Positions 55,801 through 58,800 of a stretch of 64,000 bases of DNA are shown piece by piece; position 1 is the first letter of the stretch; each line of letters opens with the position of its first letter. Made by a program: the position numbers. Origin of the DNA: Escherichia coli (lineage in GTDB: Bacteria; Pseudomonadota; Gammaproteobacteria; Enterobacterales; Enterobacteriaceae); the NCBI RefSeq assembly GCF_041248615.1, contig NZ_CP158426.1. One strand, written 5' to 3'.

Positions 55801-58800
55801 ATTTATAATCCGGCGGGTTTCCGGTGCTCCTTTGACACTCTCTCCATATCCCTCAGGCCCGGCACCAACAGATACCACGTTATTTTCTCCCGACACCTGT
55901 GAGCCATGGCCCAGAGCTACAGAACTGGTAGAATCCTGCACAGATGAAAACGCACCAATTGCCGAGCTCTGACGAGAAGAAATAAGTGACGCTTCTTTTC
56001 CTGCAACAGTCCCCCATTCAGAGTCAGCAATAAGTGCATCATGCCCCAGACTCACACTTCCCGGAGAGTTCACAACACCAGAATTATTCCCCAAAAGCAC
56101 AGTCCTGTTTGAGTCTAATAAAAAAGAATCATCACCAATCAACCATACATTTCTTACTTTATCAATCGAACGGCCAGCTACTGATTCTCCAACAAGAAAG
56201 CTATTATCTTCGCCAGGTTGAATCGGTCCGATTAAAATATCCTGAGCCTGAGCCTGAGCCGAGAGCAGCAGGGCCACACTCACTGCCAGCGCGCTTTTCT
56301 TTAAAAAAGCATCACGTCTTTTAAGCATTCTGTTATTCTCCTGTATTATTACTTCACCAGCCAGAACGGTAGTGCGGAGCAAAAATACAGTGATAAGAAT
56401 CCTCTTTTATTAATTTAATAATGCCAGGAATATTATTGTGTATAATATGCGCCCTCAATTTAAGCAGCAGAAAACGACTGGCATTAAAATCATTAAATTA
56501 TAAACATATACAACTTTGTAAAGGTGGTTATAATAAACCTGATTACTTTAACGTCTGTATACCTGCACTGCTGATATCACAAAACAATAAAAATCCTGGT
56601 TAATATCTCTGATGATTGAATGAGAAATTCACGATGTCTGGTGAGAATTCTGTTCAAAACGAGGAATGCAGACGTACACGTGGCACGCACCACGTGATCC
56701 GTAGAAAAGCCTCTTGTTACGAATTTCGTAAACCGCACGTCTGTCTGGTCGTGCGGATTTTTTATCCGTCAACTTCACATGAAACCCGCCAGAGCACTGT
56801 TTCCGGATTCAGACATCAGGCATATTATTATCCACGATGTCGTGAACAAGATCACACTTTTGCAATTCCTTTATTGATCGAAAGCAGTTAATCACGGAAA
56901 TTAATTACCGGAGTGAAAGCATTTGCTATATAAACATTCCCAGAAGACATCTTCATGTTGAATATTATTCCCTTATTGACTAGCCCCTCTGACAGAATTT
57001 CAGAGGGGGTTTTTTATCAGTTTCACCATCCAACCCTGTACGCCAGAATGGTTTCACTGTCACTCAGTTCTGCTATTGCCTTTTTCATCTCCCTTTACCT
57101 TACGTTCTGCCAGAGTCTGAGCCATTTGAACAGGAGGTTATCATTGATATCGTGTTCCCGGGCAATACGGGCAACAGAGGCTCCTGGTTGCAAAACCAGT
57201 TTAACCATTTGAAGTTTAACTCATTTGAAAATGATCTGCGGGGTTCTGCGGATAATGTTTTTGCTCCATAACAGGCGTCCACCAGTTTGAAAAGGTGGGC
57301 ACCTACGTTACCAATACTGGCTTAATGGCTACATACGGCGGTCGGTTCTTACGGTAAAACGACACAACCAAACGCTTCTTATCCTGCAATGAACTGCTTT
57401 ATTACCGAGTTTAGTGACCGCACAGACACTCACTTTTAAGAAAAACAGAATGGTAAACAAACTCCATGAATTACAATAGCTCTCTGGCTGCCGCCACAAT
57501 ATCTTGCGCGGTTAACCCGTACTCTCTCTGTAAAAAGTCCTGAGTTCCAACCTGGCCATACCGCTCTTTAACCCCCACCCGACGCATGGGCACAGGACAA
57601 GTTTCTACAAGCACTTCAGCAACCGCTGAACCTAATCCATTATGAATACTATGGTTTTCACATGTTACGATCCGTCCTGTTTTTTCGGCATAATTTTTAA
57701 TTAACATCCGATCAACGGGTTTGAGCGTAAACATATCAATCACCGCTACACTTACCCCAGCCAGCTCAAGTTGACGTGCGGCCTCCAGGGCTTCCACCAC
57801 CATAATGCCATTAGCAATTAAGGTGACATCCGTACCTTCACGTAATACCTGCCCTTTGCCAATTGTAAAGGTTGTACCTGGTGCGTAAATACTCGCTGCT
57901 TGCTTCCGAATGGTACGAATCCAATAAAATCCTTCCAGTGCAACGAGTTGACGCAAGATATCGCTGAACATTACGGCATCTGTCATCTCCATCACCACCG
58001 AATGCGCCAGCCCGCGCACAATTCCCATATCTTCAAATGACATATGTGTTCCGCCATTGTGGCAAGCAGCAACACCCGCATCAGAAGCTATAACTTTGAC
58101 GTTAGCGCCCTGGTAATCAAGCGACATAAAGAGTTGATCAAAACAGCGACGACTGGCAAATGCGGTAAAGGTATGCACGAATGGCTTGCGCCCGGTTAAG
58201 GCCAGCCCTGCAGCTGTGCCGATAACATTGGCTTCCATAATGCCGCAATTAATGACGTGATCTGGATAATCCTGCGCCACGCTGTCCATTGCCATGGAAC
58301 TCATTAAATCAGCCTCAAGAGCAATGACAGAACTGACGTTTTTACTCTGTTGCGCGATAAAATCTGCATAAACTTTGCGCATTTCAATGCTGTCTTTTTG
58401 TCCTGCCGGTGCGAGATTAATCATGCATAGCCTCCAGTTGGCGAATTGTTTCGTTTAGCGTCCCCTTCATCTCTTCTGTGAGGCGTAAGTGATGAGAATT
58501 ACTGAGTTGCTCGAGACACGGCACCCCCTGCCCTTTAATGCTATCGAGAATGACCACTCTCGGTCTGGCCTCAGCTGGCAGGACAGGTTTAACTACATTC
58601 AACAAGCCCTCAATATCATCGCCCTTCACTGTCACGACATCAAAACCGAAAGCCCGGAATTTTCCTTCCAAATCAAATGGATTAATAATTTCATCCAGTT
58701 GACCATCAAGCTGCTGTTTGTTCCAGTCCACAAACACAGTGAGGTTATTCAAACGATGATGCGCGATAAACTGGAAAGCTTCCCAACATTGGCCTTCATT

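Follow-up and report, generated by a model that had tools for sequence, protein, structure and literature searches.

We analysed a window of 64,000 nucleotides of the Escherichia coli chromosome, identical to positions 32001-96000 of the E. coli NRZ14408 chromosome (NZ_LT599825.1), and in it a predicted intrinsic terminator at 56984-57017 on the plus strand. The terminator is part of a selC-side chromosomal island, with setC, yicL, nlpA, eilA and iatC upstream, and it lies between a gene for a YadA-like adhesin (55090-56328, minus strand) and a split transketolase/phosphotransferase system (PTS) operon that begins at 57471 (minus strand). The tkt1 island of the literature is a different locus. 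An initial annotation made from the sequence had described the kilobase between these genes as poor in open reading frames (ORFs), and had proposed that the terminator belongs either to an unannotated small RNA (sRNA) or small-protein gene or to the relic of a deleted gene. Here we present evidence that the terminator was probably inherited from a lambdoid prophage.

A terminator with no annotated gene on its strand to end

The hairpin consists of a 5' arm CCCCTCTGA (56984-56992), the loop CAGAATT and a 3' arm TCAGAGGGG (57000-57008), and it points away from the adhesin gene. The initial annotation had given the stem as 8 bp; we counted 9 pairs, 6 of them G-C, around a 7-nt loop, which is a stem and loop of the kind expected of a Rho-independent terminator. 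The expected U-tract is also present, as the stem is followed directly on the plus strand by a G and then by T6 at 57010-57015. The predicted fold has an energy of -16.6 kcal/mol, with z = -3.3 relative to shuffles. The minus strand has no T-run after the hairpin, therefore the terminator is predicted to be one-directional.

To judge how unusual such a site is, we used a strict scan (perfect stem, at least T5, ΔG <= -12) on both strands of the whole window, that is 128 kb of strand. The scan returned 2 sites, compared with 0.1 ± 0.37 expected from 40 dinucleotide-type shuffles. Thus the hairpin with its T-run is present as first described, and sites of its strength are well more frequent than chance would give. 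The other strict site, at 9986-10004 on the plus strand, lies 19 nt past uhpT and is uhpT's own terminator; since this is an ordinary terminator, the scan is specific. The third-best site in the window, 56733-56756 followed by T6 (ΔG -10.9), had been missed by the initial annotation. It lies about 228-230 nt upstream of the hairpin and on the same strand. Two same-strand terminators are therefore found within a stretch without an annotated plus-strand gene, and it is correct that no such gene is served by the hairpin.

Five alleles preserve the hairpin, and where its arms have changed they have done so together. Among these changes the C-run is shortened along with the G-run, and a C-G pair gives way to A-U at the base of the stem. 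These features suggest that 56984-57017 is a genuine Rho-independent terminator, which would be expected to terminate transcription in vivo.

The ORF-poor stretch contains three gene stumps

The description of this kilobase as ORF-poor holds at the level of annotation and domains. RefSeq has no annotation within 56383-57094 in about 370 genomes, and no Pfam family matched any of the 10 longest stop-free stretches of 56383-57097 (examined in the BEN2908 copy, which is 84 bp longer). A tRNA/tmRNA search found none in the region, and a search for repeats and inverted repeats in 56300-57500 gave short chance-level matches only. However, the stretch is not empty of genes, as it contains three stumps: the 3' end of a YkgJ-family gene on the plus strand, the 3' end of a DUF4376 gene on the minus strand and the 5' part of an IS66 tnpA on the minus strand. 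Of the two initial proposals, the relic of a deleted gene is thus the right one. The region matches the 3' end of a known deleted gene twice, at the DUF4376 and the YkgJ-family relics, and such a match had been named at the outset as a result that would speak against an sRNA.

The DUF4376 relic, the 3' end of an orf-191 homologue, occupies 57023-57102 on the minus strand. It retains 26 codons, one of them changed from CAA to TAA, and its stop codon TGA lies at 57025-57023. The hairpin begins 14 nt after this stop codon. A pattern scan of metagenome contigs yielded 27 loci, and in three of these (L015, L016 and L026) homology to the window ends at 57102. Past this point they carry, on the strand that is the window's minus strand, a lambdoid tail module, in which the C-terminal part of gpJ is joined by small cargo genes, a tail fibre with collagen repeats and a DUF4376 gene of 191 aa. 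Minus-strand positions 57094-57026 of the window encode REMKKAIAELSDSETILAYRVGW followed by the stop, which are the last 23 residues of the intact 191-aa gene (L015/L026). Since REMKKAIAELSDSETILAYRVGW equals the DUF4376 C-terminus, 57023-57102 is the stump of a DUF4376 gene. The intact gene matches Pfam DUF4376 (1.5e-20) and phrog_1141 ('tail fiber protein'), and is 56% identical to ORF-191A of prophage P-EibA. It is found intact with the same spacer in L015, L026 and L043. This E. coli genome also has, at another place, an intact prophage with the same spacer (97% and 90% identity), and this second copy accounts for the extra places in BLAST counts.

On the other side of position 57102 lies the left end of an IS66-family (ISEc23-like) insertion sequence (IS) with the 5' part of tnpA (57103-57347, minus strand). 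About 60 first codons of tnpA remain, with two frameshifts, and RefSeq annotates them as a pseudogene. By BLAST the remnant is 88-96% identical to IS66 tnpA regions, it matches Pfam HTH_Tnp_1 (1e-9), and its alignment with ISEc23 contains the two frameshifts and a diverged outer end. The deletion scar between the prophage relic and the IS66 remnant is thus at 57102/57103, exactly where homology to the three metagenome loci ends. In another strain an IS3-family element is located within the IS66 remnant (L006:3542-4881).

The third stump, at 56625-56684 and on the same strand as the terminator, comes from a gene of the YkgJ family (CxxCxxCC), of which it is the 3' end. In this strain 20 codons, KFTMSGENSVQNEECRRTRG, are kept and the last 7 codons and the stop are lost. 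Strain BEN2908 encodes KFTMSGENSVQNEECRRTRGRYGLPPI and a stop on the plus strand, which matches the exact C-terminus of a 109-aa YkgJ-family protein from a prophage of strain 2015C-3905, with 16 of 27 residues identical up to the same stop (39.7 bits, E 2e-11). When the 2015C-3905 protein was compared with the window by tblastn the match had an E of 1e-5. The intact 109-aa protein belongs to Pfam PF03692 (5e-12), but Pfam gave no match to the relic itself, which is too short. The relic surfaced only by targeted tblastn once the syntenic gene was known.

The lost codons are explained by a second scar. Relative to BEN2908 and most strains, 84 bp are deleted at 56676-56685 between two 9-bp direct repeats, CACGTGGCA. 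The 84-bp segment, which in BEN2908 follows L002:6347, is present in 26 of the 27 metagenome contigs and in all nine other aligned strains (9/9), and the deletion is common to at least 6 complete genomes and one of the 27 contigs. Not only the final 7 codons of the YkgJ relic and its stop are gone with the deletion, but also the T-run that makes the hairpin at 56677-56696 a minus-strand terminator in other strains; in undeleted BEN2908 this terminator is TCACGTGGTGCGTGCCACGTGA+AATTTTTGTA.

Beyond the relic lies a segment that we call unit A (56677-56765, plus strand). It contains three hairpins, the last of which is the upstream terminator at 56733-56756, with its T6 at 56758-56763. Unit A has a predicted fold of -29.8 kcal/mol (z -3.2), its terminator has a ΔG of -10.9, and none of its 89 sites varied among 10 strains. 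In BEN2908 this first plus-strand terminator begins 108 nt past the stop of the YkgJ relic. Unit A is the former 3' untranslated region (3'UTR) of the YkgJ-family gene. We also considered that unit A and the unit ending at 56984-57017 are duplicates of each other and rejected this, as their alignment score of 22 compared with 16.6 ± 2.2 for shuffles (maximum 25).

The stumps belong to the cargo end of an Eib-type prophage

The adhesin gene itself encodes an Eib-like trimeric autotransporter adhesin, with a Pfam YadA_anchor match of 1.9e-16, and the C-terminal 118 aa of the protein, the anchor region, are 57% identical to EibA. Next to it, at 54573-55028 on the minus strand, is a gene for a 151-aa protein with a sigma-70 region-4-like helix-turn-helix (Pfam Sigma70_r4_2, 2.2e-7). 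This protein is the positional counterpart of P-Eib orf-156; it shares position, size and synteny with ORF-156A, and the sequence match is weak (21% identity, E 2e-4). When the adhesin's partner protein was used as a query, 0 relatives were found outside E. coli.

The order orf-191, spacer, eib, orf-156 is that of prophages P-EibA/C/D/E of strain ECOR-9, and in the window too the adhesin gene lies downstream of the orf-191 homologue. The same arrangement is shared with phages PhiR5_1/2 and GER2. In the P-Eib sequences (AF151091, AF151674-6) orf-191, a DUF4376 gene, is followed by a spacer of 360-800 nt, an eib-type gene and orf-156, and one or more backward-facing terminators lie directly after orf-191, as in the window. 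The depositors of these sequences annotated other stem-loops, not these terminators. The likeness has limits: the spacers of P-Eib and the window have no nucleotide similarity, the P-EibA spacer has no detectable YkgJ relic whereas that of the window does, and the window phage, unlike P-Eib, is a stump in a selC-side island next to an IS66 remnant. Together, the synteny and the Eib and orf-191 homologies show that 54573-57102 is the cargo end of an Eib-type lambdoid prophage, with the adhesin gene as a cargo gene, or 'moron'. Morons are phage cargo genes that bring their own promoters and terminators. For the moron concept, see Juhala et al. 2000, as cited in PMC4104026.

The adhesin gene is cut by a resistance module in several other loci, namely on chromosomes in L007, L009 and L011 and on the IncI plasmid pNDM5_LS003 in L013. 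The module carries sul2, aph(3'')-Ib/aph(6)-Id, tet(A), floR, dfrA36 and ISCR2, and the segment made up of the truncated adhesin gene, the spacer and the IS66 remnant moves with it and has also reached a conjugative plasmid in this way.

In related prophages the last tail gene meets a backward-facing terminator

We found that a terminator whose T-run lies opposite the tail-gene strand begins 6-16 nt after the DUF4376 stop in P-EibA, P-EibC/D/E, PhiR5_1/2, GER2, phiSTEC1589-Stx1c, a metagenome contig and the intact copy of the prophage. Often one or two more such terminators follow 135-300 nt further on. To extend this comparison we collected 49 relatives of the DUF4376 gene from IMG/VR viral contigs and counted the 38 loci with at least 120 nt of downstream sequence. 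The strict scan found a backward terminator in 26 of the 38; four more had one with a single internal mismatch and three had a weak bidirectional one, giving 30-33 of 38 in all. Within 400 nt, a forward-only terminator was found in 0 of the 38 viral loci. The background of backward terminator-like sites in the tail genes is 0.21 per kb. The hairpins at this position belong to at least 7 unrelated sequences, all of them preceded by an A-run on the tail-gene strand. The conservation of position and polarity, but not of sequence, argues for function as a backward-facing terminator.

Two further observations concern such hairpins. Three hairpin families that otherwise seem unrelated share an ATTGAC motif directly 5' of their backward terminator (TTATTGACTAG, TAATTGACTCAG and CTATTGACGAAAG); they are represented by window positions 56974-56981, L049 and L048. 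In IMG/VR loci such as L062, L080 and L088 other strong backward hairpins occur upstream of the DUF4376 stop, at distances of 846-871 and 1181-1202 nt; one example of a backward tail-region hairpin is CCGGGGAGTAACGCCCTGCTCCCCGG+T6 (ΔG -18.7), and in 72 kb of tail genes backward and forward terminator-like sites occur at 15:1.

In some relatives the gene that ends at this terminator is still present. In 2015C-3905 an annotated gene for the 109-aa YkgJ-family protein comes after the DUF4376 gene and converges on it, and a backward terminator about 130 nt past the stop of the YkgJ-family gene abuts the DUF4376 stop. Full-length convergent YkgJ-family genes are also found in viral loci L066 and L068, and in L076 a gene for an Arc/Mnt-like repressor takes the place of the YkgJ gene and ends at the terminator. 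The 2015C-3905 prophage, which lies next to tRNA-Ser/hyaA, and loci L066 and L068 resemble the window in gene order, orientation, YkgJ C-terminus and the terminator abutting the DUF4376 stop. In contrast to these relatives, only about 27 codons of the YkgJ gene survive at the window locus (20 in this strain), the hairpin is unrelated in sequence, and the 3'UTR has no nucleotide similarity to theirs. Such a loss is common: the last 16-33 YkgJ codons alone are kept in nine viral loci, one of them with this same spacer, and in the intact copy in this genome. Since many loci keep only the YkgJ end, cargo exchange often seems to break inside the gene and leave its end together with the terminator.

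Phage lambda offers a partial parallel. Its last late gene (tfa/orf-194) also faces an oppositely transcribed unit, the leftward b-region with ea47. However, tfa is not a DUF4376 gene, and the long hairpin at the tfa/ea47 junction is accompanied by no T-run, whichever strand is read.

Origin of the terminator

The homologies, the two scars and the position and orientation conserved among relatives, as observed above, point to an inherited element. We consider it likely that the terminator at 56984-57017 came from an Eib-type lambdoid prophage, where it was the end, now orphaned, of a backward YkgJ-family cargo gene that met the last tail gene. The ancestral late tail operon would have ended with the DUF4376 gene (orf-191), and a small backward cargo gene would have converged on the operon end. 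This convergent unit would have ended at a terminator 6-16 nt beyond the DUF4376 stop, its T-run opposite the tail-gene strand, so placed as to stop backward transcription before it could enter the tail operon as antisense. An eib-like adhesin module would then have replaced most of the YkgJ gene, leaving only its last ~27 codons and its 3'UTR with one terminator (unit A), followed by 228 nt of spacer and by the hairpin at 56984-57017. In a later step an IS66-family element and an associated deletion would have taken the prophage up to 26 codons from the DUF4376 end, and in this strain an 84-bp slip deletion would finally have removed the end of the YkgJ relic. Under this scheme the hairpin once served the YkgJ-family gene, and it would now have little or nothing to terminate.

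Several observations weigh against this origin. Five of the 38 viral loci, which fall into two sequence clusters, have no terminator at this position. The hairpin of the window cannot be aligned with those of other phage groups, and common descent is deduced from its position and orientation and from the neighbouring genes, not from its sequence. Where the YkgJ-bearing relatives have a single terminator, the window has two, separated by 228 nt. Because of this difference, and because the 228-nt spacer (56766-56983) has no detectable relatives, the hairpin at 56984-57017 could derive from a second lost unit rather than from the YkgJ gene. Finally, a promoter-like site on the plus strand at 56507-56534 could still feed transcripts into the terminators.

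Is the terminator the end of a small RNA?

The initial proposal of an sRNA or small-protein gene found no backing in our analysis: the promoter motif is not conserved, nor is any ORF, and Rfam gave no family. A rival reading along these lines holds that the terminator, unit A or both are the 3' end of a still-expressed sRNA, either autonomous or born from the 3'UTR of the relic. We regard this as unlikely, though unit A does have an sRNA-like build: it combines two hairpins with 20 nt of single-stranded sequence that includes CCUCUU, and its terminator has U6. Its low folding energy and its invariance in 10 strains are in keeping with such a role, but the invariance is weak evidence because background variability is only 2-4%. 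A U-rich stretch also precedes the terminator at 56984-57017.

No conserved promoter supports this idea. Near the hairpin the sole promoter-like motif is TGcTATATA, 50 nt upstream; it reads TATGTA in one allele and is deleted in another. In undeleted strains TTTACA-N17-TACAAA precedes unit A, and we considered unit A as an autonomous sRNA that has lost this promoter by the 84-bp deletion. This candidate was then given less weight, as the motif lies within the 3'UTR of the YkgJ relic and its -10 element TACAAA has no conserved final T. A promoter scan of BEN2908 and EC974 called no plus-strand promoter beside either unit. The 59 nt 5' of the hairpin are variable and contain a 26-nt indel, which is the opposite of a conserved seed.

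Comparisons with known RNAs and possible targets gave a similar picture. At E <= 1, Rfam 15 returned only sub-threshold matches for 55800-58000, namely ncr1575 (28.7 bits against a threshold of 60), S15 and Atu_C9, and at E <= 0.1 there were none in six related phage loci. Duplex folding against the 5' regions of the adhesin, orf-156-like and transketolase genes gave no more signal than shuffles did, and the strongest pairing (z -2.7) does not convince biologically. No small ORF was conserved, and a 32-aa ORF is broken by a 1-nt deletion in one strain. A full-text search of the literature for the hairpin sequences found no match.

There is a precedent for an sRNA in such a place. PasB is an 83-nt, Hfq-dependent sRNA with Northern-blot support from a prophage of enteropathogenic E. 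coli (EPEC) E2348/69 (PMC8550237, Table S6; bioRxiv 10.64898/2026.05.13.724894). In the E2348/69 sequence the PasB gene runs backward in the interval that separates tail genes I and J, and the 3' end of PasB is 6 nt away from the stop of gpI. The terminator described here is likewise backward in a lambdoid tail operon and a few nt from the stop of the preceding tail gene, but this likeness is positional only: PasB lies between I and J whereas the present terminator follows the DUF4376 gene, PasB has no sequence similarity to unit A or to the unit ending at 56984-57017, and PasB is experimentally supported while the window units are predictions from sequence. We also examined the Pas sRNAs and the anti-sRNAs AgvB/AsxR as relatives and rejected them, since they have other positions (near Q/PR', or between I and J) and no similarity.

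A related suggestion is that the cassette of YkgJ 3' end, 3'UTR and backward terminator is kept because it is functional, either as a source of regulatory RNAs derived from the 3'UTR or from spurious promoters, with unit A and the unit ending at 56984-57017 as examples and the variable 59 nt next to the hairpin as seed diversification, or as an insulator, under selection, that protects the silent tail operon of the lysogen against transcription from the cargo. This cassette is kept at the tail-operon end in many lambdoid prophages despite exchange of the gene body, but we think it improbable that function is the reason.

Two further explanations were considered. The hairpin might act in the forward tail-operon mRNA, either as a stem-loop that protects its 3' side or as its non-canonical terminus, with the T-run on the opposite strand being incidental. 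It does stand 6-16 nt past the last late-gene stop in all phage groups examined, and lambda has a long hairpin without a T-run between its convergent tfa and ea47. Yet a stabiliser would not need the A-run on the forward strand (the backward T-run) that precedes the hairpin in all hairpin families; the forward strand has no U-rich tail except in one weak bidirectional cluster; and on the backward strand of the relatives a real gene ends there. We consider this explanation highly unlikely. The least probable explanation, to which we give almost no weight, is that the hairpin and T-run arose by chance in AT-rich junk DNA. A loose terminator scan did return 3 sites in 3 kb where 2.4 are expected, but at the strength of this site 0.1 per window are expected, the hairpin has been kept while both of its arms changed together, and unrelated sequences occupy the same position and orientation in many phages. 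The inherited terminator of a lost cargo gene therefore remains our preferred explanation.

Distribution and variation of the spacer and its flanks

Of 5,426 complete E. coli genomes, about 370 contain the 712 bp to the left of the IS remnant. None of them has an annotation for this segment, and in nearly all its neighbours are the same. One E. coli plasmid carries the same segment. No nucleotide match to the spacer was found among sequenced phages, and no match in another species turned up when 100,044 species genomes were scanned for the exact pattern.

Variation within the segment is concentrated in two patches. Patch 1 (56475-56578) is hypervariable, with 39% of sites varying among 10 strains, no indels and equal length in both alleles. 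It lies in the AT-rich upstream, or regulatory, region of the adhesin gene (56329-56624; GC content 0.30-0.33), where overlapping promoter-like sites are found on both strands. The plus-strand site at 56507-56534 is a 10/12 match. Patch 1 probably lies in the promoter region of the adhesin gene. The spacer between the two terminators (56766-56983) is nearly invariant from 56766 to 56924, and its remainder, 56925-56983, is patch 2, the 59 nt 5' of the hairpin. Here 22% of sites vary, second only to patch 1. Each of the four possible combinations of patch 1 and patch 2 is seen among the strains, implying recombination. Searches of Pfam, Rfam and BLAST found no relatives of 56766-56983 outside this element. 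In L011 an IS600 (L011:1782-2938) is located between the two terminators, near window positions 56856-56860.

On the far side of the IS66 remnant is the 3' flank of the transketolase/PTS operon (57348-57470, minus strand), in which 0 of 123 sites are variable. No terminator-like site was found on the minus strand in these 123 nt between the stop codon of the operon and the remnant, and the IS66 element may have separated the operon from its own terminator. A frameshifted pseudogene of the ProQ/FinO family (63322-63830) lies 6 kb to the right and adjoins the IS66 remnant in some strains (L012).

Discussion

The finding is in itself an ordinary one, a gene relic with an inherited terminator. It accounts for a terminator without a gene and resolves an unannotated kilobase into three stumps and two scars. 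It also identifies the adjoining adhesin as the product of a prophage-borne Eib-type gene stranded in a selC-side island. For DUF4376-type lambdoid prophages in general, a conserved backward terminator against the last tail gene, together with a YkgJ-end cassette, offers a modest but helpful annotation landmark for prophage ends and 'moron' boundaries. For the prediction of sRNAs the locus is a caution, as orphan terminators in islands can be inherited gene ends.

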